The notes below the pieces were generated by a model. It saw nothing but the letters and a program-made list of their open reading frames with translations, ran no database searches and was not told where the DNA came from. Below are positions 1,696 through 32,000 of a stretch of 32,000 nt of DNA, in pieces. How positions within the stretch are numbered: the stretch's first letter is position 1; every line of letters starts with the position of its first letter. Made by a program: the position numbers and the translations under genes. The stretch is from Telmatocola sphagniphila (lineage in GTDB: Bacteria > Planctomycetota > Planctomycetia > Gemmatales > Gemmataceae), in contig NZ_CP074694.1 in assembly GCF_018398935.1 (NCBI RefSeq), positions 2,310,001-2,342,000 of the forward strand, written 5' to 3'.

Positions 1696-2526
1696 CTAAT
1701 TTTTCTTGGAGGCGTGGTATTCCCGACGAATGTGTTCCAGATCCACAGAAGGCTTGGGAAATTTCAAATCCAACTCTTCCAGGTGTTCCACAACAATTCG
1801 TGCGATCGCGAGGTTTCGGAACCACTTGTGATCGGAGGGGATAATAAACCAGGGGGCGTCGTGAGTACTGCATCGAGACAGGACATTCTCGTAGGCAGCG
1901 ATATAATCGCTCCAGAATTCTCGTTCTTTGTAATCGGCCTCGCTGATTTTCCATTGCTTCGCAGGAAGGTCGAGTCGCTCTTTGAAACGACTCAGTTGTT
2001 CTTTCTTTGAGAGATGCAAGTAGAACTTGAGAATACGAGTATTCTCCTCAACAAGCCCTTTTTCAAAATCGTTGATCCGATCATATCGAAGAGACCAAAC
2101 CGCTTTCGGCACCAGATCGTGGACGCGAACGACGAGTACGTCCTCATAATGGGAACGATTGAAGATGGCCACTTTTCCCCGGGCCGGTGCATGTGGGTGA
2201 ATTCGCCATAAGAAATCGTGAGATAACTCTTGAAGAGTCGGCTGTTTGAATCCGACCACGCTACAGCCTTGAGGATTCATAGCTCCCAGGATATGGTCGA
2301 TCGTGCCATCTTTGCCTGCAGTATCCATGCCTTGAAGGCAAATGAGTAGAGAGTAGCGTCCATCGGCATAAAACAACTCCTGGAGCTTTCGAAGTTTCTT
2401 TCGATCTTCGTCGATCTCTTCGGAGGCTTGTTTGTGGTTATCGTGCTGGTCCTTGAACCCGGGATCAATCTCCTTGAGCTTGACCTTACTTCCGGGGGCG
2501 ACTTTGAACCGATTGATATATTTCAT
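1696..2526 (-). CDS. ppk2: Polyphosphate kinase 2 family protein (single-domain polyphosphate:nucleotide phosphotransferase)
   Basis: 276-aa ORF. PPK2 hallmarks are the P-loop-like GMDTAGKDGT, FNRSHYEDVLVVRVH, and LSKKEQ...RF..R (lid). Its size and N-terminus resemble one-domain class III-type PPK2s. A GAGG-containing purine tract lies upstream of the ATG at 2526. Confidence 0.9.
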   Translation of the reverse strand: MKYINRFKVAPGSKVKLKEIDPGFKDQHDNHKQASEEIDEDRKKLRKLQELFYADGRYSLLICLQGMDTAGKDGTIDHILGAMNPQGCSVVGFKQPTLQELSHDFLWRIHPHAPARGKVAIFNRSHYEDVLVVRVHDLVPKAVWSLRYDRINDFEKGLVEENTRILKFYLHLSKKEQLSRFKERLDLPAKQWKISEADYKEREFWSDYIAAYENVLSRCSTHDAPWFIIPSDHKWFRNLAIARIVVEHLEELDLKFPKPSVDLEHIRREYHASKKN

Positions 2527-2650
2527 CGCTATCTTCCTCTCTGAATGCTACGCGACCGAGGTCGGGATATGCTTACTCATCTTTATCACTTTCAAAGCAC
2601 CGATTACTATCAGTCAAGATACCATGACATAAGCGAATATCTCTGACATT

Positions 2651-2705
2651 TGCACTCCGGGTAACAAGGGCCGTCGGGGTAGTTCCCCCCGAGTCCGGAG
2701 AGTGT
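2651..2705. other. GC-rich nested stem-loop in the gap between the small membrane protein gene and ppk2
   Basis: Outer stem CTCCGG (2655-2660) pairs with CCGGAG (2695-2700), extendable with a 2-nt bulge. Inner stem TCGGGG (2674-2679) pairs with CCCCGA (2687-2692). No U-tract follows on either strand. Confidence 0.3.
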
Positions 2706-2847
2706 CCACTACCTCCACAGCAAGAAGTACGGCCTCGAGAATCTTGCGAGGAATCGTCGACCAGAACGAGCGTCGTTCCCGCCGAAAAAGGAAAGAACGT
2801 CGATGAAATCATGCAGAATCCGGGAGCAGAAGCTTCTCAGGGCTTTA

Positions 2848-3099
2848 CTATTCGCCGCCAATCTTTCCCGTCGCCTGCCGATCTCGCACTAAACGAATGT
2901 AGAGTATCAGAAGAGCCAACGGCCCCAGCAGAAGACCTGCAATACCCCAAAGGGCCTGGCGGAGTTGGCTGAAGCCCAATTCCATGGCCCACTTGGCAGA
3001 AATAATTCCGCAGGTCAAGGCATGAAGACTGTAGGAATAGTGTTCGATTTCCATGACGTACTGTCTTCTCGATTCGAGAAGTGAACTCCGCGACTTCAT
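2848..3099 (-). CDS. Small hypothetical membrane protein, translationally coupled to fba
   Basis: 83-aa ORF. Its ATG overlaps the fba stop as ATGA (3096-3099). It has a C-terminal hydrophobic helix (WGIAGLLLGPLALLILYI). No family recognised. Confidence 0.5.
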   Translation of the reverse strand: MKSRSSLLESRRQYVMEIEHYSYSLHALTCGIISAKWAMELGFSQLRQALWGIAGLLLGPLALLILYIRLVRDRQATGKIGGE

Positions 3100-4130
3100 G
3101 AGTTAAGGGAGGGCGTTTCCAAGAGAGCCGTATATTCACCGCGCCGCGCCGCCCGATTGCAGGTGGCTCTATGATACAGCGCTTTCTGAGCCTCCGAGAC
3201 GTTCTCGGAGGTTCCATGCCAAATTTCCAGGGCCGGTTGCTGGATCGCGCGGGCAAAGGAAAAGGTTAACACCCAGGGCAATCGAGATTGGAATTTCAAA
3301 TTCAGGGCATTCAAACGAGCTGAGGCCAATTCAGCAGATTGACCCCCGGACAAAAAAGCAATTCCCGGAACCGCGGCGGGCACAGTCCGCAGGAGGCAGC
3401 GGAGAGTAGCATTTGCCACTTCTTCCACAGTTACTTGTTTATAGGAAGACGTTCCCGGAAGTATCATATTCGGTTTCAGGAGGATTCCCTCCAGCATCAC
3501 CCGTTGACCGTAAAGAGCTTCGAAAATCATTCGCAAGACTTTCTCCGACAATTCCCCACACCGCTCCAGAGTATGTTCGCCCTCCATTAGAACCTCCGGT
3601 TCGACGATGGGGACGAGTCCAATTTCCTGACACAAAGCCGCATATCGCGCCAATGCCTGTGCATTGGCCTCGATGCAACCCCTGCTGGGAATCCGTTCGC
3701 CGATTGCAATTACCGCGCGCCATTTTGCAAATCGAGCGCCCATCTCGAAATACTCCGCAAGGCGTCCGCGCAAGCCGTCCAAGCCTTCGGTTATTTTCTC
3801 TTCCGGATGCCCTGCTAAATCCTTGACGCCGGTATCGACTTTGATACCAGTGAGGATTTTCGCATTGCTAAGAACCTTTAAGAAAGGAGTGCCATCTTTC
3901 TGCTTTTGCCGAATTGTCTCATCGTAGAGAATAACTCCGCTGATGCTCTCATTGAGACCGGGTGTTGTGATAATCAACTCCCTATAGGCGCGGCGGGCCT
4001 CCTCCGTTTGCGCAATACCGATTTTGGCAAATCGTTTATTGCAAGTTTCCGTACTTTCATCCATCGCCAGCAGGCCTTTATGGTCGGCTAGTAATTCTTG
4101 AGTAGTCTCTCGGAGGAGTTGCGTGTTCAT
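3096..4130 (-). CDS. fba: Fructose-bisphosphate aldolase, class I (eukaryote-type 'Glycolytic' family)
   Basis: LLAMDES near the N-terminus, the Schiff-base lysine context EGILLKPNM, and FLSGGQS ... FSFARA. The ORF-track start at 4157 is a GTG without an SD. I prefer the ATG at 4130 (MNTQLL...), but either start is possible. Confidence 0.9.
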   Translation of the reverse strand: MNTQLLRETTQELLADHKGLLAMDESTETCNKRFAKIGIAQTEEARRAYRELIITTPGLNESISGVILYDETIRQKQKDGTPFLKVLSNAKILTGIKVDTGVKDLAGHPEEKITEGLDGLRGRLAEYFEMGARFAKWRAVIAIGERIPSRGCIEANAQALARYAALCQEIGLVPIVEPEVLMEGEHTLERCGELSEKVLRMIFEALYGQRVMLEGILLKPNMILPGTSSYKQVTVEEVANATLRCLLRTVPAAVPGIAFLSGGQSAELASARLNALNLKFQSRLPWVLTFSFARAIQQPALEIWHGTSENVSEAQKALYHRATCNRAARRGEYTALLETPSLNS

Positions 4131-4356: not shown

Positions 4357-6831
4357 TCATCGTGTAACCGTTTTTTTCGAGGAATTCGCGGGAGCTCGAG
4401 GGTCTAAGTTGTGGGTTTTCTGATCCATCCATTTCCAATTGCGGATTTCCGGCATGTCTTCGCCCCGTTCGTCGATAAAGCTCTTGTGTTCCACGAGCTT
4501 GTCTCCAACCATCTGTTTCAAATAGGCCGCCCGATCTTTCAACTGAGGCAATCGGTCGATCACGTCCTGAACCAGATGAAAGCGATCCAAGTCGTTTTGA
4601 ACTCGCATATCGAAGGCAGTCGTTATTGTGCCCTCCTCCTTGTATCCGCGCACGTGAAGATTTTGATTGGTACGTCGATAGGTTAGACGATGAACTAAGC
4701 TTGGGTAACCGTGAAATCCAAAGATGATGTGTTTATCTTGGGTGAAGAGTGAATCGTAATCCGTTTCACTCAGTCCGTGCGGATGTTCGCTCGCGGATTG
4801 CAGCTTCATGAGATCAACGACATTGATAACGCGTATCTTCAGATCGGGGAGATAGTAACGCAGAATCGAAACCGCCGCGAGAATCTCCAGCGTCGGAGTG
4901 TCTCCACAGCAAGCCATCACGACATCCGGTTCGGCCCCCTCGTCGTTACTAGCCCATTTCCAGATGCCGATGCCTTCGGTGCAGTGCACGACCGCAGCAT
5001 CCATTGTCAGCCATTGCGGCAGGGCGTGTTTGCCGGCCACCACGACATTCACATAGTTGCGGCTGCGTAGACAATGGTCGAAAACCGACAAAAGACAGTT
5101 CGCATCGGGGGGTAGATAGACCCGGACGATTTCGGCTTTTTTGTTGATGACGTGGTCGAGAAAACCGGGATCCTGATGAGTGAAACCATTGTGATCTTGC
5201 TGCCAAACGTGCGAAGCGAGCAGATAATTCAGCGAGGAGATCTTTCGGCGCCAGGGCAATTCCAGCGTGACTTTCAGCCACTTGGCGTGCTGGCTAAACA
5301 TGGAATCTACGATACGTATGAAGGCCTCGTAGCTATTGAAGAGGCCGTGACGACCGGTTAAGAGATAGCCTTCCAACCAGCCTTCGCACTGGTGTTCGCT
5401 GAGCATTGAGTCTAGCACTTGGCCTTGAGGAGCCAAGAATTCATCGTTCTGAATTTCGCGTGCGTCCCACTGTCTGTCCGTGACTTCAAAAACTGCGCCG
5501 AGAAGATTCGAGAGCGTCTCGTCCGGGCCGAAAATGCGAAAATTCCGTTGCTGTTGATTTTGCTTGGCAACATCCCTGAGGAACTTTCCTAACACGAGAG
5601 TATCCTGGCCACTGACCGCACCCGGTAAGGGAACATCAACGGCGTGCTGATGAAAATCGGGCATCCGAAGATCTTCGAGGAGAATTCCCCCGTTGGCGTG
5701 AGGATTCATCCCCATCCGGCGGTTTCCCTTCGGAGCAAGCTCCGCCAACTCCGGTTTCAGTCGACCACTTTCGTCGAATAACTCCTCGGCCTTGTAGCTT
5801 TTCATCCAACTTTCCAGCAATTTGACATGCTCAGGATGAGCGGGATCCACCAACAGTGGCACTTGGTGGGCGCGGAAAGTGCCTTCGATCTGCAGGCCAT
5901 CCACGACTTTGGGTCCCGTCCAGCCTTTGGGGGATCGCAAGACAATCATGGGCCAACGTGGCCGGACGCACGGGGAATCTGGAGAGAGACTGCCCTTTTT
6001 ATCTTCCTTCTTGTGACGTGCTTCTTGTTGGATTTTTTGGATCTTTTCCACTACCGTATCGAGTGTTTCGGCCAGCGCCTGATGCATCAACGCGGGATCA
6101 TCGCCTTCTACGAAGTAGGGACTCCAGCCGTTTCCGCGAAGAAATTGTTCCAGTTCTTCGTGCTCGATCCGAGAAAGCACGGTCGGGTTACTGATCTTAT
6201 AGCCGTTAAGGTGCAAGATCGGCAGCACCGCGCCGTCGGTAATAGCATTGAGAAACTTGTTCGATTGCCAGGAGGTCGCCAAGGGACCCGTTTCCGCTTC
6301 GCCATCCCCGACCACGCAGGCAACGATCAGATCGGGATTGTCGAAAGCTGCCCCGAACGCATGGCTGAGAGAGTATCCCAATTCGCCGCCTTCGTGAATC
6401 GAACCCGGGGTCGTCGGCGCGACGTGACTGGAAATCCCGCCGGGAAAGGAAAACTGCTTGAACAGCTTTTTCAATCCGGCTTCATCCTGGGTCACATTCG
6501 GATAAACTTCGCTCCACGTTCCTTCGAGGTAAACATTCCCCACGATTGCCGGGCCGCCATGTCCTGGCCCGGCGATATAGAACATGTTCAGGTCGTACTT
6601 CTTGATGACTCGATTCAAATGCACGTAAATGAAATTTTGGCCCGGCGTGGTTCCCCAGTGACCGACGACCAACGGCTTTACATGCGAAAGTTGGAGCGGT
6701 TCTTTCAGAAGCGGATTGTCGTAGAGATAAATCTGCCCCACCGACAAATAATTCGCGGCCCGCCAGTAGGCATCGATTTTTCGCAACTGTTCCTGATCCA
6801 AGGATGCGATTTTGCCTTCACGTTTCGACAT
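4357..6831 (-). CDS. xfp: Phosphoketolase (xylulose-5-phosphate/fructose-6-phosphate phosphoketolase)
   Basis: [40 protein letters not shown] and the overall ~820-aa length are typical of XFP. The ORF-track start at 6885 is a GTG overlapping the atpG stop. The ATG at 6831 has AAGGAG 7 nt upstream and is preferred. Confidence 0.92.
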
Positions 6832-6881
6832 CGTCAACTCCTTCGAATAGTCCGGTATTTTTTCGCAGTCCGGTTTGCCGC

Positions 6882-7784
6882 TCACGAATTCTCGGGTAAG
6901 CGCGCTTTTGCTTTGGACAACGATTCGTAACCCGCGAGTACATCGAATAATTCCTCATCGATAGTTGCTTGGCGTTGGCGACGGAAAGTCTGGTTGAGGA
7001 CCTCCAGAATTTCGTCGATATTTCTTTCCGCACGTTGCATGGCGGCCAATCGACTCGCATTTTCACTCGCGAGGGATTCGGCCGCGGCCTTGAAGAGGGA
7101 AACGAAAAAATATTCCCGGAGGAGCACCCGCAACATCGCCTCAGGGTTGCCGATGATCTCCGGCAGGTTTCCGCTCGGCCAAGGAAGGTGAACCAACCGG
7201 AGCCGCCACTTCTCATCCAATGGCAGCAGGCGTTGGCTCACCGGTTCATAAGAAGCTCCCGCCTGGGGATGATTGTGAAAAAGGTAAAATTCACCGATCT
7301 CCCCTTTCTCATAGTGCGCTTCACATTCGACGAGAATCTGCCCGACGAGTGGCGTGATGGCAGTTACTGAGGACGGAACCCCGAAAACTCCCACGGAGGA
7401 GAAACCGACGTCAGCCAGCCGGGATTGAATGCGTTCGCCGACGGCCCAAATATGCTTTTCTCCCGGAAGCGTATTCAGAGCTTGAACGACAAAATCGGCC
7501 AGCCGGTCGTTGAATTGTCCTACCAGTCCTTGATCTGAACCGAAGACTACGGCGTTCACCGCTTTCGCCCGGGACACGATCGCGTTTCTGCCGAAATTCC
7601 CCGGCATTCGTAAGCAGACGGCTAAACCAAGTTCAACCGTTCGGTAGTAGTCGGTCAGAGCAAGTACCGATTTCTCGTACTGTGTAATGCTCGATGCCGC
7701 CAGGGCCTTCATGGAGCGAACTACTGCTTCCAGATCGTTCGCTCCGCTGATTTTGCGTCGCAAGCTCACCAAGGTATCGCTCAT
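6882..7784 (-). CDS. atpG: N-type (alternative F-type) ATPase, F1 gamma subunit
   Basis: 300-aa ORF with the gamma C-terminal signature [18 protein letters not shown]...[17 protein letters not shown] overlap with the atpA stop (7781-7784). It is the last gene of the atpDCQRBEFAG array. Confidence 0.9.
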
Positions 7785-16910: not shown

Positions 16911-17605
16911 GGAAGTTCTTTCCTTCCTAGAACCGCTCGATGGCAGGAACTTAACAACTATTACAACGCACGAGAAACGCCTGAAACTTAGTTAGGTATT
17001 GCACCCCATCAATTCGTAACTTCGGCGGAGCGAACCCGGACGTCCCCTCTAGCCCTAACATCGACATTCGGTTTCTCCGATGTGGCATCACCTCGTTGTC
17101 TCGGGATCGATCAGAGGCTAGTTGGCTTTTCCAGGCTTCATGTTTCCCTATGGCTTAGTTTGCAAATCCCAATCGGTGAGTTAGAGAGGTAATGTGGTAG
17201 AGTGAGATAGATGAATGAGAAATTGGGTGTCAGGGAAAGCCTGTCGGGCCTAGGGAATGATGGACGCAAGATGCGGAATTATTAAACGTCTTCGATCCCG
17301 CGAGCGGGGCGAAGGAACAAATTCGAGCGTTTCTTCTTAGAAGTCCCGGTCGTCGAACGCCAAGCGAAACGCTCTTCGATGGACGAGATAAAAGGACTTT
17401 AAGAACAACTACGCCCAATATCTCTTAAATGATCATCTTCCCGATGAAGCGGTACACAACTCAGGCAAAGTCCACTTCCGTAAGGTCCCGATTGAAACTG
17501 AAGGCACTCAGAGTAGGCTGACAAAATATCGTTTCGAAAATTCCCAACCAGATTTTAACGCCGATAGGGTAATCCGAAATCTGAAACAACTCGAAGAGCA
17601 AGCTT

Positions 17606-18517
17606 TTACACCCTCTGAGAAAACCAGTGATTGGGTGGAAAATTTTCAGATTCCAGCAACCAGTACTTTTCATCCGAGGACCAAGAAGCCGCGATTCGAA
17701 AAGCGGCTTCAACCACCCTCGGGGTTAATTCTCGGGGAGGTAAGGCCCAACGCAACAGCTGATCTCCAGAATCTAATCGGAGGATTGTTTCGGGTTTCGC
17801 TGGATTTGCATCCCATGCATCGGATTGGGCCGAGCGAGTTGAGAATAGATTTCCCAATCCATTTCCTAGACCGCAGAACCAATCCCTCTGATCGGCTGTC
17901 CAAGGCCCTTTCCAGTCAAATCGTTCTCGATAAATCGGCTCTCCTCCCCGGCGAATTTCCAATTCCTGGATGATTCGATCAAATGCAAACCACTCGGAAC
18001 TATCCCCTCGCTCGTAGCGGCCGGGTAACCAAATATCGGCCCAAATAAAATTGGCTTCGGCAGCCAATTCTACTTCGACCTTCTGATAGTATCGGCTGCC
18101 GCGATAGGGAATGGTTGGCCCAGGAAGAACTACTAGCTCCGCTCCTTCTTCGACTCGGATGTGCCATTGCTGCGTACTGAATTCCTGACCTGCAGGATGG
18201 ATGCGATTGGCCGATTGGCCGGTGACGATGGTACGTGTTCCCGCCCGCGCCGTAATCGAGATCAACTGGGCATCCCCGGCCAGCAAACCCGCAGTCGGGT
18301 TCAGAATATACAGCAGTGAAGCGGATTCCCCTGAAAAATGAAAAGGAGGAAGGATTCGCAAAGGCACTTGCTGGTAACATTCCCCCAAACGTGTTTTGCC
18401 GGCGGTATTGAGAAGTTCCACTCGAAGTCCGCCGATCTGACCAGCAGACTTTTGAGCCAACTGCAACGCAGTAAATTCGGGAGGTATCACAAAATCCCCC
18501 ACTTCGATCCTTTTCAT
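17606..18517 (-). CDS. ureD: Urease accessory protein UreD (UreH)
   Basis: UreD-like core ([36 protein letters not shown]). The ATG at 18517 overlaps the ureG stop as ATGA. The 13 upstream codons of the ORF track were dropped. Confidence 0.85.
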
Positions 18518-19260
18518 CGAGCAGACTTTCGAGCAGCGAGTTGGGCGCGCACCCAATCGACGACCAGATGGGAATTCTCTCCCTGCCTAAGGCTAATCAT
18601 GAAAAATGGTTTTTCGCCGCGCATCTTCGTGGCGTCCCTCCGCATGACTTCCAGATCCGCGCCCACATGAGGAGCCAAATCCACCTTATTGATGACCAAC
18701 AGATCACTGTTGCAAATTCCGGGGCCACCTTTGCGAGGAATTTTATCCCCTTCGGCTACGTCGATGACGAAAATGAAAAGGTCCGCCAGTTCTCGAGAGA
18801 AGACGGCGGTCAAATTGTCTCCTCCCGACTCGATAATCATCAATTCCAAGGCCGGGATTTGACGTTCAAAGTTGGCCACGGCACTAAGATTCGCGCTGGC
18901 ATCATCCCGGATAGCCGTATGCGGGCAACCGCCGGTCTGCACTCCGACAATTCGCTCTAGTGGGAGCACATTTCGTCGGGAAAGAAACTCCGCATCTTCA
19001 TGCGTATAAATATCGTTGGTGATGACTGCCAAATTCACGCTGGGCCAAAGATCGCGGCAAAGTCGCTCCACCAGGGCCGTTTTGCCGGAACCGACCGGCC
19101 CCGCAATTCCCAGTGTAAAAACTTTACGCCGGGGACCGGCAAATCGGCCGCCGCCATGCGAATGACCCGAATCGTTGGGATCGCGATGGTAGAGACGCTG
19201 GCTCGAAGAGAGATGCGATTTAGGATCGAAACATTCGAGAGTAAAGTCGGGTCTGTTCAT
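18514..19260 (-). CDS. ureG: Urease accessory GTPase UreG with a His-containing N-terminal extension
   Basis: P-loop [20 protein letters not shown] and NKVDL motifs. Start taken as the ATG at 19260 (alternative ATG at 19275). No start codon lies downstream of the ureF stop, so ureG overlaps ureF by at least 41 nt. Confidence 0.9.
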
Positions 19261-19906
19261 CGCATAAAACCTCATAGAGCGGATTTCCACTGCCGGCCAT
19301 TTCGACCGGACGATCAGACATGATCTCAGCCAGGGATTCAATTTCCGAATGCAAGTATGCGAGTATTTGCTGCCCGTGGGTATGATTGACTGGGATGGCT
19401 CTAGCCCCCGCACCGATCATCCCCAGGCTTGCCTGATGCAGATAAACGATCAGGGTATTTTTCGCAGTCGATTCTGCTAACGCACCCAGTAATCCGAAGA
19501 CAATCGCATGATGCCAACCTGAACCGATTCCGTTTGGGAATAAATATTCCAACCCCTGAGCTGACCAGTTCCAGGTGCCCGCCAACCAGAAGAGTTGATC
19601 CCCCATTTCCAGACTGGCCGCTCGCAAGGAGGGGACGGGCATCATCGCGGTCATCAACCGATTCAATCGTTTCAACTCGACAGCATGGTCGTCGGCATGG
19701 ATTTCGCGACTGGCTTTGTGCGCCGCAGCCAAGAAAACCCCTTCCAGGGGAGCCAGAGAATAACGCAACCAGTTTCGGGTCCAAGTTTCGAGCGACTCGG
19801 AATCCATCACTGTCTTTCTCGCAATCGCTGCTTCCAGACCCCAGGAATGTGTATACCCACTGATCGGTAGTGCCGAATCGCCTATCTGAAGCAAACGGAG
19901 GTTCAT
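19220..19906 (-). CDS. ureF: Urease accessory protein UreF
   Basis: 228 aa. The opening [24 protein letters not shown] is typical of UreF. Confidence 0.85.
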
Positions 19907-19918
19907 GGATTCGGACTT

Positions 19919-21640
19919 TTAAAACAAAAAATATCTTTGTGTCATGGGCAATTCACGGGCCGGTTCACTACCAATCTTTTCGCCATCTACCCAAACCTGA
20001 TAGGTATCCGGATCGACCCGAATATCGGGAGTCAAATCATTCAATTTCAAATCCTTTTTCGAAATATCGCGGCATTTCTCGACTGCAACCAGCGGACGTT
20101 GCAAGCCGTATTTTTGGGCGATGCCTTCCGCCAGCGAAGCCTTCGAAACAAAACTAAAGCTGGACTCCGTCATAGCGCGGCCGAACGAAGCAAACTGGGG
20201 GCGTTGATAGACGGGCTGAGGCGTGGGGATACTGGCATTGGGATCGCCCATTTGGGCGTAGGCGATCATACCCCCTTTTAGTATAAGCTCTGGCTTAACT
20301 CCGAAATAGGCTGGTTTGAACAACACCAGATCCGCCCACTTACCCGGCTCAATACTGCCAACCTCACGAGAGATACCGTGAGTTAACGCTGGGTTAATCG
20401 TGTATTTGGCAATGTATCTTTTCGCCCGAAAATTATCGTTTCGAGAATTGTCTTCCGGAAGTGTTCCAAATTGCGCTTTCATCTTGTGGGCGGTTTGCCA
20501 GCAGCGGATGATGACTTCACCAATCCGGCCCATGGCTTGCGAATCGGAGCTGAACATACTCAATATCCCGCGATCATGCAGCACATCCTCTGCACCGATG
20601 GTTTCTGGCCGGATGCGACTTTCGGCAAAAGCGACATCTTCCGGCACTGATCGCGACAAATGATGGCAGACCATCAGCATATCCAGATGTTCATCAATCG
20701 TGTTAATAGTGAACGGCCGGGTGGGATTCGTGCTGGAAGGCAAAACGTTTTTCAGCGAAGCGATCTTGATGATATCCGGAGCATGCCCACCCCCTGCTCC
20801 TTCCGTGTGATAGGTATGAATCGTCCGACCTTTGAACGCGGCGATCGTATCTTCTACAAATCCGGATTCATTTAAAGTGTCGGTATGAATGGCCACTTGG
20901 ATATCGAAACGGTCGGCTACAGCAAGGCAATTATCGATGGCCGCCGGAGTCGTTCCCCAATCTTCGTGGAGCTTCAATCCACAAGCCCCGGCTCGTACCT
21001 GTTCTTCAAGAGATTCCGGTAAACTGCAATTACCTTTGCCTAAGAAGCCAAAATTCATGGGAAAAGCTTCGGCGGCCTGGAGCATTCGCTTCATATACCA
21101 GGGGCCTGGAGTGCATGTAGTTGCCCAGGTTCCCGTGGCCGATCCGGTCCCACCGCCAATCATCGTTGTAATTCCAGAAGCAATTGCCACTTCAATCTGC
21201 TGAGGACAGATGAAATGAATGTGCGAGTCGATGCCACCCGCAGTGCAGATCATTCCTTCACCCGAAATGACTTCGGTTCCCGCACCGATCACCAGCTTCG
21301 GATCCACTCCGGTTTGAATGAGGGGGTTTCCCGCTTTGCCGATACCTACAATCCGACCTGCCCGGATTCCAATATCGCCTTTAACGATTCCCCAGTAATC
21401 GAGGACGACCGCATTGGTAATCACCAAATCGAGATGCGGATATTCCGCAGGCAATTTCCGGGAAGTCTGCCCTCCTCCATCTCGGATGACTTTGCCGCCC
21501 CCGAAAACGACCTCTTCCCCATAATGAGCAAAATCTTTCTCAATTTCGATGATGAGATTCGTATCGGCTAGGCGGATGCGACCGCCGGTGGTGGGTCCAT
21601 AATGACCGGCATAAGAAGCCCGCGAAATTCGCACGCTCAT
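19919..21640 (-). CDS. ureC: Urease alpha subunit
   Basis: 573 aa. It has the carbamylated-Lys context [15 protein letters not shown], and the nickel-ligand His motifs (IDSHIHF). ATGA overlap with ureB. Confidence 0.97.
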
Positions 21641-22023
21641 GATGACTCCTTCCGGGGCTCGTCGCCAAAGCCTTCAGCACGCATCCGTTCGAGGCTCTGT
21701 TTGCGAATCCCAGGATCGTCGAGTTCCCCGGAGACTAGACCACTTCCCCCAAAAACGATTCGACTTCCACCCAAAGGCACCAGGCTCACTTCTCGGATAT
21801 CTCCCGGTTCAAACCGAACTGCGGTGCCGGCCGGCAAATCGAGTCTTTGACCATAGGCTTTTTCCCGATCAAAGACCAAAGCTCGATTCACCTCGAAAAA
21901 GTGAAAGTGAGAGCCCACCTGTATGGGACGATCTCCTCGATTGGTCACGCTAATTGCGGTGACCGGCCTCCCGGCGTTCAGTTCCAGGGAAGGACCATCG
22001 AACAGGTATTCACCGGGAATCAT
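21637..22023 (-). CDS. ureB: Urease beta subunit
   Basis: MIPGEY...[17 protein letters not shown]...GTAVRFEPG, followed by a ~25-aa C-terminal tail. Confidence 0.95.
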
Positions 22024-22030
22024 CGTACCC

Positions 22031-22333
22031 TCAAGAAATCGGATCGTGAACGGTTACAAGTTTAGTTCCGTCGGGAAAGGTCGCTTCTATCTGGATCTCA
22101 TGGATCATTTCGGGCACACCGGGCATCACTTCGTCACGCTTCAATATACTTCGACCCGCCGCCATGATTTCTGCAACCGTCAAGCCCTCTCTGGCCAGTT
22201 CCATCAAAGCGCTGGCAATCAGGGCGGTGGCTTCGGGTACGTTCAACTTAAGTCCGCGCGCTTTGCGAGACTTAGCCAGTTCTCCGGCTGTGTAGATTAG
22301 AAGCTTATCTCGTTCCTGCGGAGTCAGATGCAT
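22031..22333 (-). CDS. ureA: Urease gamma subunit
   Basis: [32 protein letters not shown]...I; 100 aa. Confidence 0.95.
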
Positions 22334-25392: not shown

Positions 25393-26796
25393 CTATTTTT
25401 CCTCATTCTCTTGTACCGCCAGGGGCAACGTAGGATCCCCAAACACCATGAATTTCATTCCCTGAAAAAAGATCGACGGAGGATACCAGTCGTCGCTCGG
25501 TTTCAGTCGCGCCAACCCTTCCTTGGCATAGTAGTAACTGATGGCACTAGACCAGCAATCCCCGAGGTGGGGATGCGGTGCCTTTCTCAGAGTCATCATA
25601 AATCCATCGAGTAACGTCAAGGCGCAGGGTTGACTTCCCGTATTGCAGCCGATGTAAGCCACTGCGCCGTTGAGGCCGCGCTTCAATACTTGTTCCCCAA
25701 GCCCGGTAGGGTTATACTTCCCCTTCTGATACGGGGCAGGTGGAGGTGGTGGCTCCTTGAAAACCTCGCCTCGGTTGGTTCCGATATGTTCCTGCCCCTG
25801 GATATCCACATACGCTTCATAGGGCGGCAGTGGAGCGAAGTAACTCGTACTGCAACCGACCGAGATCATGATTGGCAAACGATCGGAGTTCTTCACGCGA
25901 GCGAGACTGCCGACTGAGAAACAACCTTCCCAAGTATTTTCACTGCCGTGCCCGGCGTGGACCACCAAGGAGCTCCCTTCGTTTAACAAGGCCAATACAT
26001 TCTTTTCGTTGGGTGGAAGTGTTTTGAATTTCGGATTATCGTTGCTGAAGAAGTATCGCTCGGCTTTCCAAGCCATGGGCATCTCGGAGGCGATTTTCTC
26101 CAACTGGTTGCGGGCATCGACCCATCCGCCTACATGGAAGAGGCCCATCTTGTGCAACCCAGGATGGTTACCATCGAGAATACTCTTCTCATATGCGAGC
26201 GATTTGGTGGCCACGATGTTTACTTCTGCAGGAGTGCTGACGGGCCAGCGGCCGACGGCAATTTTGGGATGGTACTCGATCTGATCGTAGTTGATTGGAT
26301 CTTTCTTGTTTTTCTCGCCGCGCACTTCACCGAAATAATGGACGTGGAATCCTTCTTTCCGGGCATTCCAATCTTCGAAACTGCCATCTTTTTTGGCCAG
26401 GTCGGAGTAATAGAGATCGGAGGGGTAAAAAGAATAATCGAATGCGGCCGGAGTGACGCGGTCCAGGACCATATAGCGGACGGGGAACACATCGATATCC
26501 CCGACTAACAGCACATACTTGAGATGGTTTTTACGATACGCGTCATACAAGAAACGTTTGACTTTTTCCGGGTCGTCAGCACCCGCAGTTGTTTTGAGAG
26601 TTCTTTCCAGCGAAACCAGTTCCACCTTGAAAAGCTTCTGTTTTTGCTGAACGTAATCCTTCAGCGCAGTATGAAACTGATCGGGGGAGACGATCATAAA
26701 CAGGCTAGGATCTTTCTTGGGCTCTTGCGGCGACTGTGCAAAAGCTGTCGAAGCGTATAAGAATCCCAAAATTGAAATAAATAAAAATCGAGGCAT
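25393..26796 (-). CDS. Secreted peptidase C25 (gingipain)-like cysteine protease
   Basis: Signal peptide, then VLLVGDIDVFPV..., VGRWPVSTPAEV. The catalytic His context is VVHAGHGSENTW and the Cys context is MISVGCSTSYF. Confidence 0.75.
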   Translation of the reverse strand: MPRFLFISILGFLYASTAFAQSPQEPKKDPSLFMIVSPDQFHTALKDYVQQKQKLFKVELVSLERTLKTTAGADDPEKVKRFLYDAYRKNHLKYVLLVGDIDVFPVRYMVLDRVTPAAFDYSFYPSDLYYSDLAKKDGSFEDWNARKEGFHVHYFGEVRGEKNKKDPINYDQIEYHPKIAVGRWPVSTPAEVNIVATKSLAYEKSILDGNHPGLHKMGLFHVGGWVDARNQLEKIASEMPMAWKAERYFFSNDNPKFKTLPPNEKNVLALLNEGSSLVVHAGHGSENTWEGCFSVGSLARVKNSDRLPIMISVGCSTSYFAPLPPYEAYVDIQGQEHIGTNRGEVFKEPPPPPAPYQKGKYNPTGLGEQVLKRGLNGAVAYIGCNTGSQPCALTLLDGFMMTLRKAPHPHLGDCWSSAISYYYAKEGLARLKPSDDWYPPSIFFQGMKFMVFGDPTLPLAVQENEEK

Positions 26797-26955: not shown

Positions 26956-29319
26956 TCATTTTACCTTCCAACGCAACACTGTCAGAGAAAGGGGCGGAAA
27001 AGTATAATCGAATCGACTTGAAGTCGCTTTCCAGTGACTTTCGGTCACGGCTACCCGATTAGGAGAATCAAAATCATTGGTGACATCCGGTTCTCCGGCC
27101 TTCCGAGTATCCGACAATGTGAAGACATCGGCTGGAGGAAGCGAATCCCCAAAAGCTGACAGATCGAGCGGTCGGATCTCTTCCTGCAACGAATTGTTGA
27201 CGGCAAACAGAGTAAGGGTGGTCCCATCTTTCGAGAGAGTAGCGCTGAGATCGGGAACTAAATTCACCGGGAGATTCGATTCGATTTTCAGAGCAATCTC
27301 TCCGGCGTAAGTGGCATAAAGTTTTTGGGCGTAATAGGTCGGTGTTTTATATATTCGATACGAATCGGTTTGAATAATTCCGGAACAGAAACTATTAATG
27401 AGGTTGGATCGGTTGGCAATGGTTACCAGATCGGCATTCCGGTGCAACAGGTTTTGATATCGCGAGCACAGCAGTGCATTTTCCAAGGTCCAGAGCATAC
27501 CACGCCGAGGTCCGAAATCCCCGGCGGTCGTATTCCATTCCGTTACGCCGACTTTAATCGATCGCTTTCGGGCATGCTTCTGGATCAATTCCCGCACACG
27601 TAGCAGCTCGGCCTCCGTACTGGCGATGTCGCCGATCGAGTACTGATGCGGACAAACGAAATCGAGCCACTTGCCCGCTTTTTCCAACACTCCTGCAGAC
27701 GGATAACTCGATAAAAGGCAAATACTGGGATCCACCGCCTTCATGGCTTTACAGAACTCGGGTAGTCGATTTTCGTAGTCCGAGCCGGACCGCTCGTTAC
27801 CGATTTGCCAGTACATGATCCGGTAAGGTTCCGGGTGGCCATTCGAGGCGCGGAGCCGGCCCATCGGCGTGTTCCCATCGCCATTGAAATATTCCACCTG
27901 ATCGGCTGCATCCTGAACTCCTTTCTTGGTCACTCGAACGCAAATCAACGGCTCCGCATTGACAGAGCGGCAAAATTGCACGATCTCTTCCAAGCCTGGG
28001 CCGGTCGGTTGAAGCCCGCCCCAGGCTCGAAAAGGCTTGCGATGATCGGGATTGCCGAGCGTATCGCGCCAATCGAATTCCCCTAGGTTGGCATCATCCA
28101 GGGCGCTGCCGCCAAAACGGATAATCCCTGGCCGGAGTTCCTTCACTGCTTCGACGACATCGGACCGCCAACCACCGACCGTTTTGACCGGCATCAGGGA
28201 AACATTGTCGATCCAGAGTGTGCCCGGTCCCCGAAACGAAATCTCAATACGTCCGGAGGTCTCTTTCTGACGAGGGGTCAGTCGAGCTGAAAATTTTTGC
28301 CATTTCTGTCCCGCGGTGAATTCGCAGGCCGCCAGTTCTTCCGAAGTCCCTTTCAACCGAATATGAACCGGGCCGGAGATTCCCATCTGGCGTAGATAAC
28401 AGGTCAAAAGGCAAGGTTCGTTGGCATCGAGGGCCAACCCATCTTGACTCACGCCCACCGTGCAGGGCGAAGATCCGGTGACGGCGATTTTCTGGGAAAC
28501 CAGACCGCTAACCGGATTCGTTTTGTCGAGCGTAAAATTGGCTCGATTGGTGGCCCCACTCGGGTACCAGGGCTGTTCGAGCGAATCTTTTGCCCCAAGG
28601 AAACGAACCTTATAAGGGGTTAACCCTTCGAAGCTGCCATCGTGAATTTTTTCGGCCCACATGCTCGGGATGAGATCGCAGAGATATTCGACGAATTGAC
28701 CGTACTGAAACGGATCTATCGATTCTTTGAATAGCGGTTGATGGGTGATCTTCAGAGGAAATTTTCTCGGATCGATTTCTTCCAGTTTCAGATCGCTGAA
28801 CCAGACTGTGCCTGTCCCTTTTCCAAATCCCACAAAAAAAAGGACAAGCCGGATTTTACCGTCGGGAGGCGGCCCGAACGCAAGTGCAACCCGAGTCCAC
28901 TCGGTGGTGCCCCGACGATTGACACCACTGACGATACTTCCCTTCCCTTCCGACTTCTGGACCTGGATGGTTGCGCTAACTGACGCCGCGTGCGGATCGA
29001 GATTGTTTGTGCGGACCCATCCGGTGATTTGATACATTTTCGCAGGATCGAGCGTCATCTCCTGGCCTAGAGCCGTGTCGGATTCCATCGTGGAGGAAAT
29101 TCGGACGGACTTCTTCCCTTCGTGGGTGATCGCAGGGTCGACGGTCACTTCCGCCTGGGCTCCATAAGTCGTCACCTGCCAACCAGTTATTCCTTCCTCA
29201 AACAGCGCATTTCGAAACGTCGCTTTCGCGGGAGTGTCCGAGCTATGGAGTGCGGGTGTAAAGATCAAGAAAATGCTCAGGAGCAAACGGGTAGAAAATG
29301 TTCGCGGTAGATGCATCAT
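26956..29319 (-). CDS. Secreted glycoside hydrolase, clan GH-A, alpha-L-arabinofuranosidase (GH51)-like, with N-terminal CBM-like beta-sandwich domains
   Basis: 787 aa with a signal peptide. The N-terminal part is CBM4/9-like (GWQVTTYGAQAEVTVDP...). The (beta/alpha)8 core has IIRFGGSALDD, the acid/base motif YWQIGNE and the nucleophile motif VGVTEWN, followed by a C-terminal beta-sandwich. Confidence 0.7.
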   Translation of the reverse strand: MMHLPRTFSTRLLLSIFLIFTPALHSSDTPAKATFRNALFEEGITGWQVTTYGAQAEVTVDPAITHEGKKSVRISSTMESDTALGQEMTLDPAKMYQITGWVRTNNLDPHAASVSATIQVQKSEGKGSIVSGVNRRGTTEWTRVALAFGPPPDGKIRLVLFFVGFGKGTGTVWFSDLKLEEIDPRKFPLKITHQPLFKESIDPFQYGQFVEYLCDLIPSMWAEKIHDGSFEGLTPYKVRFLGAKDSLEQPWYPSGATNRANFTLDKTNPVSGLVSQKIAVTGSSPCTVGVSQDGLALDANEPCLLTCYLRQMGISGPVHIRLKGTSEELAACEFTAGQKWQKFSARLTPRQKETSGRIEISFRGPGTLWIDNVSLMPVKTVGGWRSDVVEAVKELRPGIIRFGGSALDDANLGEFDWRDTLGNPDHRKPFRAWGGLQPTGPGLEEIVQFCRSVNAEPLICVRVTKKGVQDAADQVEYFNGDGNTPMGRLRASNGHPEPYRIMYWQIGNERSGSDYENRLPEFCKAMKAVDPSICLLSSYPSAGVLEKAGKWLDFVCPHQYSIGDIASTEAELLRVRELIQKHARKRSIKVGVTEWNTTAGDFGPRRGMLWTLENALLCSRYQNLLHRNADLVTIANRSNLINSFCSGIIQTDSYRIYKTPTYYAQKLYATYAGEIALKIESNLPVNLVPDLSATLSKDGTTLTLFAVNNSLQEEIRPLDLSAFGDSLPPADVFTLSDTRKAGEPDVTNDFDSPNRVAVTESHWKATSSRFDYTFPPLSLTVLRWKVK

Positions 29320-29500: not shown

Positions 29501-31459
29501 TTATCTCGACGATAGTTCACCAGACAACAGCCGGAGGGCGGCGTCTCGAACCTCAGAATTCGTTTGAGCTTCCGCAGCTTTTTCTACCACCCTCATCAAT
29601 TGAGGAAAGCGTTCGCGCATCGGCCAGAGCAGATTCAAAGTCGCCAATCGAACTTTAGTGGATTCATCCGTTTGCAATACATTTTGAAGGGTCTCATAGG
29701 CTTGCGAAGTTAGAAAACGAAACCGGAAAGTGACAACCACTTCTTCGCGGATATCGGAATCCGAATCAGTAGTGAGAGTGTGCAGAAGAATTTCTTCGGT
29801 CTCCTTCGAATGAATGAAGCGTAATGCGGATATGGCCGTGCGCCGGAGGATATTACTTTTATCGTTAAGATAACTACTGATAATCGGTACGCTTTCACTC
29901 AGTCCGGCATTGCCGAGTATCATTAGCCAGTGCTGCGTCTTTTCCTCGCTATCCGCTTTTTGAATTTCTTCGACCGCCCAGGCGACGATCTGAGCAGCGC
30001 GGGGAGCTGCCGTTTTGGATAAGTTGCGGGCAATCGAACCTAGGCAAAGCTGGGCCAGCGGCGCGAGCCCAGGTATCGGCGAGTTCCTGGCCAGATCGCG
30101 CACGGCTTCTTCTAGGGCTAGAGTCGGGGCCTTAATCTGGGAGATCGTAACCAATAAAGATTGTGCCACGAGAGGTTCCGGGGAACGCGCTTTCAGCAGA
30201 TTGAGTAGGGCCAGTTGACTCTCATCATCGCCGACACTCACCAAAGCGGTTGGGATGAGCTTCAGGGTCAGACTGCCGGGTGTTGCCCGCCTTGCCAAAT
30301 CTCCCCAGCGCTCGCTCGATTCCGGATGAACGACCATAAAGGCCTTAATTTTCAAATAGAGAGGAGTCTGATCTTTTTTCTCCTGTTGGTTACTCTCTTC
30401 ACGAACTAAATCCGCGACGAGACTTTCGAAGGTGGAATCGCCGAGCTGCTTAATTTGCAGTTTCTTAATGTCGGCGGGAGCAAAATGATTCGTGAGGGTT
30501 TCCGGATTGACGCTCTCAGCTATTTTTGAACTCTGCTTGATGAGAAGGCTCAGCTGTTCTGCAGATGCATGTTCGTTTCTCAGAAATTCATATCGAATGC
30601 TCGATTCACTTGTAGAAAGAGTGGTGTCGCTAACTAAAACTTCTGTACTTTCGGTTCCTTCGATGGAGCGCACTAGACCGAGCTGGGAATCGAATATAAT
30701 TTGCAAGCTGCCGGCTGGAACGAAGGTCATTCCCATAGTCTCTTCACCAGTTGTTCGATGGAACTTAGGAGGCTCAATTTCTTCTCGGCTTTTAATGAGT
30801 GCAATTCGCTCGGGGTGAATACTGAAATTCGACTGATAGACGGCTCGACAACGACCTGCGGGTACGTCCTCCCAAACTTCCCAGGCCTCCGGATCCTGTT
30901 CGTCCTTAGGTAAGCTAACTTGAAAGGACGCTATGATCGTCCGAAACGAATTCCGGGATAGTTCGTCATAATATTGAGGAAACAGCAGTGAGTGAATCTG
31001 CCCCTGGAGATCGAGATCCGCAATCACAGGCTTGGCAAAGTCGGTTGATATTTTCTTGGCACTCTCTAAAAGCAACTGCTCGCCCAAAAGAAGCACAATC
31101 TCCGAGTTGGGCATGGAGTAGGCAACTCGCAGCGTGTCGTTATTTCTCTCCAAGACGGCGACCGACAGTTCCCCTTCCGCAATAATTTTCATAGACTGGG
31201 TTTGCTTGCCCGTGACAACCAACTTTTGACCATTACCGAGGGAATTTAAATCGATAGCTCCAGACCCCGCATAGCGGAAACTGTAGATAGAGCGCTCACC
31301 TGGAAGAAGCCGGTACGAAAAGGTGGGAGAATGAAAAAGAAGGGGTCGAAGCACTCCCCCCGCTAAAAAACCGGAACAGATAACGAATACGAGAGAAAAC
31401 CAATACCACTGGATGTGACTGCCGTTTATGATCGAAGACCGAGATTTTAGCGTAATCAT
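29501..31459 (-). CDS. Membrane-anchored protein with a beta-rich N-domain plus an alpha-solenoid; tentatively vitellogenin-N / large lipid transfer protein (LLTP) N-terminal module-like (would otherwise be annotated as a HEAT-repeat protein)
   Basis: 652 aa. ATG with GGAG 8 nt upstream. N-terminal TM segment (WYWFSLVFVICSGFLAGGVL). The ordered motifs are PGERSIYSFRY; PVIADLDLQGQIHSLLFP...FRTIIASFQVSL; WEDVPAGRCRAVYQ...IALIKSRE; WLMILGNAGLSESVPIISSYL; and LRRTAISALRFIHSKETEEILLHTL..DSDSDIREEVVV. Confidence 0.85.
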   Translation of the reverse strand: MITLKSRSSIINGSHIQWYWFSLVFVICSGFLAGGVLRPLLFHSPTFSYRLLPGERSIYSFRYAGSGAIDLNSLGNGQKLVVTGKQTQSMKIIAEGELSVAVLERNNDTLRVAYSMPNSEIVLLLGEQLLLESAKKISTDFAKPVIADLDLQGQIHSLLFPQYYDELSRNSFRTIIASFQVSLPKDEQDPEAWEVWEDVPAGRCRAVYQSNFSIHPERIALIKSREEIEPPKFHRTTGEETMGMTFVPAGSLQIIFDSQLGLVRSIEGTESTEVLVSDTTLSTSESSIRYEFLRNEHASAEQLSLLIKQSSKIAESVNPETLTNHFAPADIKKLQIKQLGDSTFESLVADLVREESNQQEKKDQTPLYLKIKAFMVVHPESSERWGDLARRATPGSLTLKLIPTALVSVGDDESQLALLNLLKARSPEPLVAQSLLVTISQIKAPTLALEEAVRDLARNSPIPGLAPLAQLCLGSIARNLSKTAAPRAAQIVAWAVEEIQKADSEEKTQHWLMILGNAGLSESVPIISSYLNDKSNILRRTAISALRFIHSKETEEILLHTLTTDSDSDIREEVVVTFRFRFLTSQAYETLQNVLQTDESTKVRLATLNLLWPMRERFPQLMRVVEKAAEAQTNSEVRDAALRLLSGELSSR

Positions 31460-31538
31460 ATTATAATCTCCGATGTAGGCACAAACTTGTTATAATCCGG
31501 TTGCAAATGACAACCAGATGTAAATTATCTTCGAGTAA

Positions 31539-32000
31539 TTATTTCAAAGGAATAATCTTTTCTGTCGGGTAAATTAGATCCCCATTGATGGGGGTCCAAT
31601 CGGGCCAAGAAAACAACTTGTAATCGGCTACTTGCTGCCAGCTAAGATTCCAAACGTCAGGAAAATTAGGCAGATTCATTTTGCCGATGATATCGATTTC
31701 GCCGCCTAGAAGTGAAAGTGTGTCGTTCGCATAATAATCGAATATTAATTCGGGTGTATTAGCAAAACTGAGGGTCACAGATCCATAAAGATTGAATGAT
31801 TCATTGATAAGGTTCAAGGTTCCACTCACATCGAGTTCAACTTCATCCAACAATGAAACACCGACAGTTGCATAAATTGTGCATGAGATCTTCAAAGCGG
31901 GATTTATCGAAGCCGTGGTAGGCGCAAGTAGGAAATTCATGTTGGCTTTAAAATCACCCTTTGTGGCGAGGCCAACATCGACCCCAAAAAAGAGAATGGG
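31539..32000 (-). CDS. Hypothetical beta-rich protein, C-terminal part only (the reading frame stays open to the right edge of the window)
   Basis: The ORF track gives 133 aa from the ATG at 31940. The 20 codons upstream (PILFFGVDVGLATKGDFKAN) contain no stop, so the gene probably starts beyond 32000. It is markedly AT-rich compared with the rest of the window. Confidence 0.5.
   Translation of the reverse strand, partial: PILFFGVDVGLATKGDFKANMNFLLAPTTASINPALKISCTIYATVGVSLLDEVELDVSGTLNLINESFNLYGSVTLSFANTPELIFDYYANDTLSLLGGEIDIIGKMNLPNFPDVWNLSWQQVADYKLFSWPDWTPINGDLIYPTEKIIPLK

Follow-up and report, generated by a model that had tools for sequence, protein, structure and literature searches.

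A Bacterial Barrel–Solenoid Protein Family Related to the N-Terminal Module of Animal Large Lipid Transfer Proteins and Its Conserved Gene Partner

A Bacterial Relative of the Large Lipid Transfer Proteins

The planctomycete Telmatocola sphagniphila (Planctomycetota) harbors an open reading frame (ORF) of 652 amino acids (aa) at positions 29501..31459, minus strand, of a 32,000 nt stretch of its genome (contig NZ_CP074694.1, positions 2,310,001 to 2,342,000; the window in the following). The ORF, the Pfam family PF01347, an AlphaFold2 model and Foldseek searches all identify the product as a β-barrel followed by an α-solenoid, and this barrel–solenoid protein is almost certainly homologous to the large lipid transfer proteins (LLTPs), which include MTP, apoB and vitellogenin. 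It belongs to a large bacterial family, and its gene mostly follows a partner gene for an exported protein with a β-sheet domain. A preliminary description, made from the letters of the window, had claimed that the protein shows the motifs of the LLTP N-terminal module in the correct order, and it had expected a routine label as HEAT-repeat protein. This is indeed the NCBI name ("HEAT repeat domain-containing protein"), but the precomputed Pfam tables already list PF01347 (Vitellogenin_N) for the protein.

The quoted motifs were located in the translated sequence. The peptide PGERSIYSFRY was found exactly at residues 53-63, and VWEDVPAGRCRAVYQ (195-209) and IALIKSRE (219-226) lie within the claimed stretch 195-226. 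Three further peptides were present with slightly shifted borders: the one running from PVIADL to FQVSL is at 144-183 (previously 143-182), WLMILGNAGLSESVPIISSYL at 511-531 (previously 511-530), and the one from LRRTAIS to VVVTF at 538-578 (previously 538-580). The LGNAG codons are at 29903..29917, minus strand, precisely as described; Gly516 of this motif does not vary, and Asn517 occurs in 75 of the 76 family members. Judged from the sequences, the resemblance to the LLTP motifs is well beyond chance.

The NCBI version of the protein (P0001) comprises 563 aa and starts at Met90. With this start, the membrane helix and the first strand of the barrel are lost (31193-31459, minus strand). The 652 aa reading is more likely to be correct, since a Shine-Dalgarno-like GGAG at 31468-31471 precedes the ATG at 31459 by 8 nt, a second, independent gene call gave 652 aa, and both the family alignment and the Pfam barrel start upstream of Met90, near residue 49.

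Residues 18-37 (31349..31408, minus strand), which follow Lys5 and Arg7, are the sole strongly hydrophobic segment (best 19-mer Kyte-Doolittle mean 1.99) and coincide with a model helix at 16-33, in agreement with the single N-terminal membrane segment of the preliminary description. The sequence of this segment contains no AXA cleavage site and no canonical lipobox; it probably acts as a signal-anchor. The β-barrel domain spans residues 55-297 (30569..31297, minus strand), as seen from DSSP of the model, Pfam, the lipovitellin alignment and hhalign. It is followed by a two-layer α-helical solenoid of HEAT-like sequence at residues 300-646 (29522..30562, minus strand), which is based on the model, PF01347 and HEAT_2. 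The predicted layout of a β domain and an α-solenoid of about 300 aa each was thus confirmed by the model.

Sequence Homology to LLTPs

The full protein matched PF01347 with 63.3 bits (E 2.3e-17), while the gathering cut-off is 24. The best stretch comprised residues 400-608 and profile positions 359-586, with weaker HEAT_2 and HEAT matches alongside. The HEAT_2 match (E 5e-13) covered residues 495-574, and the HEAT architecture accounts for only about a fifth of the protein. Since the PF01347 match at 400-608 could be due to HEAT mimicry, the β-half was scanned separately. With residues 40-330 alone, PF01347 was the sole Pfam match (E 8.6e-6, 25 bits), now at profile positions 79-164, which are part of the barrel and correspond to residues ~140-225.

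A profile of 34 β-domains was compared to all PDB sequences and gave one match at E<=10, to residues 90-161 of lamprey lipovitellin (E 0.011). The alignment pairs bacterial RtlLAatQfVlP...WeteEedpnGqyvArY with RGILNLFQLSL...FELQETGVEGICQTTY. The second and third motif comparisons of the preliminary description were recovered in this alignment nearly letter by letter. Cys204 is paired with Cys156 of lipovitellin, and Tyr predominates in the family at this position. In the solenoid, the family profile aligns with residues 404-507 of lipovitellin (1LSH) and residues 349-535 of MTP. The searches thus did not return merely HEAT/ARM matches: PF01347 was above its gathering threshold, and its barrel part was matched by the β-half alone.

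A single-sequence phmmer search with the protein against the PDB gave no match. A word-indexed homolog search with the protein and a 76-sequence alignment returned only the protein itself and HEAT-repeat noise; it was uninformative, because HEAT words swamp the candidate list.

Predicted Structure of the Barrel–Solenoid Protein

The AlphaFold2 model, built on the 76-sequence alignment, reached a predicted local distance difference test score (pLDDT) of 91.7 and a predicted template modeling score of 0.81. It shows a barrel of 12 strands with helices at 131-141 and 166-179, and a solenoid of 20 helices. In the model, helix 166-179 is the counterpart of the central helix in LLTP barrels.

We compared the model to 350,542 PDB chains by Foldseek. 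The nine best matches were all LLTPs, with E from 8e-18 to 1e-11 and ~620-760 aligned columns for the 652-residue query. MTP 6I7S occupied ranks 1 and 2 (E 7.7e-18, 637 columns), followed by lipovitellin 1LSH at rank 3 (E 5.5e-16, 652 columns), apoB-100 at ranks 4, 6 and 7 (E 4e-14), honeybee vitellogenin at ranks 5 and 9 (E 3e-13) and MTP 8EOJ at rank 8 (E 8.3e-13, 622 columns). The first generic ARM/HEAT protein was found at rank 10 with E 4e-6. The predicted N-domain fold is therefore LLTP-like, as had been anticipated. The protein combines a PF01347 match above threshold, a barrel with central helix and a two-layer helical superhelix; it ends after the solenoid and does not carry the C- and A-sheets in the same polypeptide.

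These data also bear on the possibility that we are dealing with a generic HEAT-repeat protein, with an unrelated β-rich N-domain and with LLTP motifs that arose by chance. Residues ~495-610 match HEAT_2/HEAT profiles and the designed protein alphaRep, as is the case for PBS-lyase/alphaRep-type HEAT proteins, and the full-length family profile matches alphaRep far more strongly than lipovitellin. NCBI and JGI use HEAT repeat names, and 33 of the 34 β-domains miss PF01347 when they are scanned singly. HEAT-repeat proteins, however, have no N-terminal barrel and leave the colinear full-length LLTP match and the β-sheet partner unexplained. The β-half alone matches the PF01347 barrel, lipovitellin is the sole PDB match of the β-domain profile, and fusion relatives (see below) match PF01347 positions 1-164 with a whole-protein E of 1e-22. 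Furthermore, the Foldseek E values of LLTPs surpass that of the first generic protein by 5 or more orders of magnitude (1e-11 or better versus 4e-6), and by ~12 orders for the best match, and the structural alignments to LLTPs span the whole chain. We consider the generic HEAT reading as refuted, with a negligible residual probability.

Family Size, Distribution and Export

In an exhaustive HMMER search against 1.84 billion cluster representatives (clusters at 50% identity), 2070 matches were obtained at E<1e-3, and the clusters matched at E<1e-30 numbered at least 215. Of the 150 matches listed, nearly all have 620-700 aa and are colinear over query residues ~45-646. Family members share 23-43% identity, and the source databases (NCBI, JGI) name them "HEAT repeat protein" or "hypothetical protein". 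The claim of a bacterial homolog was thus supported and had to be widened: the protein is not confined to one genome but is part of a large bacterial family.

For a survey of 185,579 reference genomes, we used a degenerate DNA pattern on the ungapped block L..LGNAG...R..A...LR. Matches were kept if the full-protein profile and the β-domain profile both matched, by which about half of them, HEAT-only chance matches, were removed. At least 58 loci with both domains, including five metagenomic loci, were obtained. The taxonomic survey suggested by the preliminary description thereby places the family in at least eight bacterial phyla. Judged by their record titles, the matches listed include Cyanobacteria (Calothrix, Rivularia, Brasilonema, Scytonematopsis, Leptolyngbyales), Acidobacteriota (Blastocatellia, Pyrinomonadaceae, Terracidiphilus), Myxococcota (Minicystis rosea, Polyangiaceae, Labilithrix, Byssovorax), Gammaproteobacteria (Photobacterium, Ca. 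Halobeggiatoa), Bacteroidota (Pedobacter psychroterrae), Planctomycetota, Bdellovibrionota/Oligoflexia, Desulfobacterota and Armatimonadota. The archaeal matches among those listed were HEAT-only, without the β-domain. Several metagenome-assembled genomes (MAGs) hold two separate family copies (L016/L044, L008/L061 and L050/L124).

An N-terminal hydrophobic segment was present in 108 of 114 full-length representatives, which argues for an extracytoplasmic location of the family; a lipobox-like motif was found in 14 of the 114.

A Conserved Partner Gene Upstream of the LLTP-Like Gene

The preliminary description had pointed to an AT-rich ORF upstream of the LLTP-like gene. This ORF turned out to be the 3' end of a conserved partner gene. 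Its last 153 codons and the stop codon are located at 31539..32000, minus strand, as concluded from the ORF, homology and the model, and encode the long-strand part of a β-sheet domain. According to the sequence, a spacer of 79 bp (31460..31538, minus strand) separates the two genes. The partner gene runs off the window edge; the full gene is present on the longer contig L126 at 6282-7781 and encodes 499 aa (P0156), with window position 32000 corresponding to L126 7320.

In four metagenomic loci, a gene without Pfam match is located directly upstream of the LLTP-like gene and on the same strand. Homology was found among these upstream genes (E 3e-40) and also to the window-edge ORF 31539-32000 (E 3e-6), colinear with the C-terminus. 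An iterated partner profile was then applied to the testable loci, which are those family loci among the ones listed with 900 bp or more of upstream sequence. Of these 46 loci, 37 have a partner immediately upstream and on the same strand. We regard a functional pairing of the LLTP-like protein with the product of the upstream gene as highly probable. A word-indexed homolog search with the partner found only two partner proteins. The scan for promoters and terminators around the pair and in the 79-bp spacer revealed nothing above chance; this fits co-transcription of both genes but is no proof of it.

The partner start as called gives no signal peptide; an in-frame start 43 codons upstream (L126 6153-6281) adds MRLFGRKKKLLTLGLCALLSTTTGAVCFGQ. 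With this upstream start, the partner has a classical Sec signal and a length of about 542 aa. Partners elsewhere have the same type of signal, and clear signal peptides are present on the partners of other species.

The partner gene is AT-rich, with 41.6% GC and a GC content at third codon positions of 0.435, while the LLTP-like gene has 49.5% GC and the locus about 50%. This could be due to a Lys/Asn-rich composition or to foreign origin. Variations of the gene arrangement were also observed. The Planctomycetota MAG L041 has two tandem partner paralogs (855-1859 and 2407-3579) upstream of the LLTP-like gene, and in L056 (1503-3464) a partner-like gene is located downstream of an LLTP-like gene.

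Fusion Proteins

Four proteins hold both parts in one chain, in the order barrel, solenoid, partner domain: ABX04837/A9AX29 of Herpetosiphon aurantiacus (861 aa), a Chloroflexia MAG protein (809 aa) and two Archangium proteins (829 aa and about 900 aa). By hhalign, the main family was located at fusion positions 32-568 (probability 99.9%), the β-domain profile at 90-326 (probability 92.8%, E 3.9e-7) and the partner at 591-845 (probability 99.0%, E 8.7e-18). This is the domain order of MTP, in which the barrel comprises residues 21-297, the helical domain 298-603 and the A/C-sheet lipid-binding domain 604-884 (PMC6717300).

The barrel signal was strongest in the fusions, with 80-83 bits for PF01347 and a whole-protein E of 1e-22. 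Residues 49-213 of Archangium P0184 match PF01347 positions 1-164, and residues 43-201 of P0207 match positions 3-161. When the fusion profile was compared to the PDB, lipovitellin came first (6.5e-6, barrel residues 76-222) and MTP second, in one colinear stretch (102-501) and ahead of every HEAT protein. In its sources, among them UniProt, A9AX29 already goes by "Lipid transport protein domain" or "lipid transporter", which means that annotation pipelines have already met this domain in bacteria.

Predicted Fold of the Partner

The partner P0156 (499 aa) was folded with a 22-sequence alignment. Residues 227-495 were predicted as all-β with pLDDT 70-85 and contain, in this order, about six strands of 6-17 residues, five of 20-28 and three shorter ones. 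MTP has a six-stranded C-sheet, and the strands of its A-sheet are twice as long (PMC6717300). The pattern of strand lengths in the partner resembles this description of the C-sheet and then the A-sheet.

Foldseek gave only two PDB matches at E<=1e-3 for the partner, and both were chains of MTP 6I7S (7.4e-6 and 1.8e-5; probability 1.00, 284-285 columns, root-mean-square deviation (rmsd) 9.5 Å). The C-domain of MTP consists of 281 residues (PMC6717300). The next matches were lipovitellin (0.011, probability 0.91), honeybee vitellogenin (0.074) and MTP 8EOJ. One Polyangiaceae partner matched the Pfam family Vit_open_b-sht with E 0.015, below threshold, over 147 colinear residues (73-219) that align to positions 126-275 of the 303 profile positions. 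We tentatively assigned the partner to the A/C sheets because of its position in the fusions, the strand pattern, the aligned length and this weak Pfam match, and we think it fairly probable that it represents an MTP-type A/C-sheet domain. The preliminary description had stated that the lipid-cavity sheets are lacking; this is true of the polypeptide, but the adjoining upstream gene appears to encode them. A duplicated N-barrel was also considered for the partner and was rejected, as hhalign gave a probability of 0.1% to the N-barrel profile.

All remaining Foldseek matches of the partner were outer-membrane barrels. EspP, OmpT, BtuB, OccK8 and BamA follow the LLTPs in the list, many partners end aromatic-rich (...YLY, ...YF, ...PW), and the mean pLDDT of the partner model is only 64.8. 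The partner might accordingly be read as an outer-membrane β-barrel, with the LLTP-like protein as its periplasmic or lipoprotein companion, as plug and barrel in the manner of LptD/LptE, and the MTP match as a long-hairpin artefact of a model of mediocre quality. The barrels, however, were found with probabilities of 0.01-0.3, template modeling (TM) scores of about 0.1 and rmsd values of 22-30 Å, versus probability 1.00 and 9.5 Å for MTP, and strands of 20-28 residues far exceed membrane-spanning strands. Moreover, the partner domain is fused C-terminally to the solenoid in Herpetosiphon and another Chloroflexia genome, and Chloroflexia are generally regarded as lacking an outer membrane. An outer-membrane barrel is therefore very improbable.

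Many partners have a second conserved module in the N-terminal part, with the pattern ..P-I-x-F-K-P-F...D-P-x-T-G-K...L-T-L-P-N-G....A-G-E-Y-Y..L-N.L-E..F-N.L-G-Y-S-L (L126 6282-6960; N-terminal parts of P0157-P0164, P0182, P0183 and P0189). No Pfam or PDB match was found for this module, and the partners of Photobacterium and several myxobacteria are without it.

Proposed Function of the Pair

On the basis of these results we propose that the LLTP-like protein would be exported and that its N-terminal helix would tether it to the cytoplasmic membrane; in place of this helix, other species may use a lipid anchor or a cleaved signal. The partner would be exported too, and both would assemble outside the cytoplasm as a split MTP-like particle; this physical assembly is something that we infer. 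Solenoid and barrel would clamp the partner sheets, as in MTP, and the clamped sheets would line a hydrophobic pocket, by which lipid may be bound or shuttled in the envelope or at the cell surface. We favor such an exported, split MTP-like lipid-binding complex with moderate confidence.

Several points weigh against this proposal. The barrel signal is weak at the single-sequence level across the family, because among the 34 β-domains that were scanned singly only that of Telmatocola reached PF01347. The conserved disulfide of the LLTP barrel (lipovitellin Cys156-Cys182, MTP Cys174-Cys194; PMC6717300) is not kept, as the protein sequence has no second barrel cysteine beside Cys204. For the partner, the model is moderately confident (mean pLDDT 64.8) with a poorly predicted N-terminal half, and the TM-scores are low (0.26, normalized to the 499 aa query). 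Foldseek gives no target coordinates, and the aligned part could formally be the N-barrel of MTP. The partner profile yielded noise and no LLTP when compared to PDB sequences, and the Vit_open_b-sht match was seen in only 1 of 37 partners. No partner was found in 9 of the 46 testable loci at the thresholds used, of which two (L018 and L020) showed a divergent partner-like upstream ORF in later clustering. The partner gene comes first in the split form and the partner domain last in the fusions; since gene order and domain order differ, the fusions are not simple read-throughs. Finally, lipid binding by the pair, for which we see even chances, is also inferred.

In some partners, five PA14 domains or an immunoglobulin (Ig)-like domain of the AIR9 type follow the β-sheet domain, namely at L120 3693-6026 (Desulfamplus MAG), L123 3655-5433 (Minicystis rosea) and L043 1681-2856 (Polyangiaceae MAG). 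This extension suggests glycan or ligand binding at the surface or in the extracellular space. It leads to another explanation, in which the protein is a true homolog of the LLTP module but serves as a docking or chaperone scaffold for a secreted β-sheet effector such as an adhesin, a toxin or a predation factor. The N-module of MTP plays such a part for apoB, and that of vitellogenin for its receptor. PA14 and Ig-like domains typically occur in proteins that bind to surfaces, many of the hosts (Myxococcota, Oligoflexia, Herpetosiphon) are predators or live in association with surfaces, the Telmatocola pair is flanked by secreted hydrolases, and the second tier of the partner's Foldseek list contains pore and barrel proteins, with low probability. 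On the other side, the best and sole significant structural matches of the partner are lipid-binding LLTPs, the PA14/Ig additions are limited to few lineages, and in its architecture the fused form follows MTP, in which the C-domain holds the lipid site (PMC6717300). The domain additions together with the predatory or surface-associated hosts keep a surface-binding or effector role as a real alternative, which we regard as unlikely in comparison to the split lipid-binding complex.

Genes in the Neighborhood of the Pair

Directly downstream of the LLTP-like gene and on the same (minus) strand, a GH51-like alpha-L-arabinofuranosidase with a CBM4_9 module is encoded at 26956-29319, followed by a C25 (gingipain-type) peptidase at 25393-26796, also on the minus strand. 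These are the secreted hydrolases mentioned above; they are not conserved beside the pair in other genomes. A urease cluster, unrelated to the pair, occupies window positions ~17600-22300 on the minus strand, where urease alpha is encoded at 19919-21640 and the beta subunit at 21637-22023. The urease gamma subunit and, as accessory genes, UreF and one cobW/UreG-like gene were identified in locus L126.

Ser/Thr kinase genes recur near the pair in seven loci, among them L118 (5675-7174), L051 (3838-5769), L123 (6583-7998) and L011 (1-3168), and in Telmatocola a kinase-WD40 gene (L126 1-408) is located ~6 kb upstream of the pair. No other neighbor besides the partner recurs. We did not accept the kinases as part of the system, since Ser/Thr kinases are very numerous in the host phyla and their recurrence may be coincidence. 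Two large genes on the same strand precede the pair in L126 (715-5938), encoding proteins of 932 aa (no Pfam match) and 824 aa (CarboxypepD_reg-like); a CarboxypepD_reg protein is encoded downstream of the pair in L003. Clustering of the neighbors revealed no recurring gene for a protein like protein disulfide isomerase (PDI) beside the pair. A redoxin-like gene is present in the window ~6 kb from the pair and is not conserved.

Comparison to Known Lipid Transfer Systems

MTP-alpha (6I7S, 8EOJ) is the best structural match of both the LLTP-like protein and the β domain of the partner. The bacterial fusions have the same order of barrel, solenoid and probable two-sheet domain as MTP and similar sizes (809-861 aa versus 894 aa). 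MTP itself is an obligate heterodimer with PDI. The bacterial form, in contrast, mostly consists of two genes, with no recurring PDI-like gene beside them, it is exported via a signal or anchor while MTP is retained in the endoplasmic reticulum, the MTP disulfides are not conserved, and sequence identity is about 14%. The bacterial solenoid is also about two helices longer than the Pfam domain. MTP is the smallest LLTP, is not itself a lipoprotein scaffold and has a pocket for single lipids (PMC6717300).

When compared to lipovitellin and vitellogenin (1LSH, 9ENS, 9ENR; Pfam Vitellogenin_N PF01347 and, weakly and for one partner, Vit_open_b-sht PF09172), the barrel aligns including the central helix and the G-x-C/Y-x-x-Y strand. 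Unlike vitellogenin, the bacterial protein has no large funnel cavity, no phosvitin, no vWD domain and no DUF1943/1944 shell, reaches only about one third of its size and plays no part in yolk formation or receptor binding. The N-terminal module also matches the beta-alpha-1 region of apoB-100 (9BD1, 9E9R; E 4e-14), while the very long amphipathic belt of apoB has no counterpart.

Bacteria possess exported lipid carriers such as LolA/LolB, LptA, MlaC and the AsmA/TamB/YhdP-type bridges, all of which shield lipid in a hydrophobic pocket or groove lined by β-sheets. None of the LolA/LolB, LptA, MlaC and AsmA-type carriers was among the significant Foldseek matches of either protein. Their relation to the pair is one of functional analogy, with no kinship in fold or sequence detected. 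We classify the system as a bacterial, usually split LLTP variant nearest to MTP, because sequence and fold correspond to the LLT module while the disulfide and the sheets in cis are lacking.

Origin and Significance

The AsmA-like and VPS13 families are a precedent for eukaryotic lipid transporters with bacterial kin. For the LLTPs, emergence has been tied to lipid transport in multicellular animals (PMC12214520; PMC13540394), and within the superfamily MTP is considered as possibly the oldest protein (PMC6717300). A search of about 8 million open-access papers and preprints yielded no account of LLTPs in bacteria. As mentioned above for the PF01347 tables and the name of A9AX29, the domain is already flagged by database pipelines.

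All characterized LLTPs are animal proteins (PMC12214520), the spread of the family within bacterial phyla is patchy, and the atypical composition of the Telmatocola partner gene (41.6% vs. 50% GC) gives a hint of mobility. The bacterial genes might thus have been acquired secondarily from animals and later have spread among bacteria. We consider this improbable in view of the 23-43% identity, the number of clusters at 50% identity (at least 215), the occurrence in at least eight phyla, the bacterial export signals and operon organization, and a split architecture that is unknown in animals. The deep divergence together with the bacterial operon and export features argues for an old bacterial family. 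Only tentatively do we go further and suggest that the complete LLT module may be ancient and widespread in bacteria, mostly as two exported subunits and fused in Chloroflexi and some Myxococcota, and that the animal LLTPs may descend from it.

The existence of a bacterial barrel–solenoid family gives the search for the origin of apoB, MTP and vitellogenin a new direction, and this argument is stronger given a conserved, sometimes fused partner that resembles the lipid-binding domain of MTP. Hundreds of entries that currently carry the name "HEAT repeat protein" or "hypothetical protein" could receive a new annotation as members of the pair. The pair would provide a minimal, PDI-independent and naturally split model for the gripping of sheets and the loading of lipid. 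In Planctomycetota, Myxococcota, Cyanobacteria, Acidobacteriota, Bdellovibrionota and others, it points to a so far undescribed system for the handling of lipids in the envelope or outside the cell. A machine that was regarded as an invention of animals may exist in bacteria in a two-piece form.

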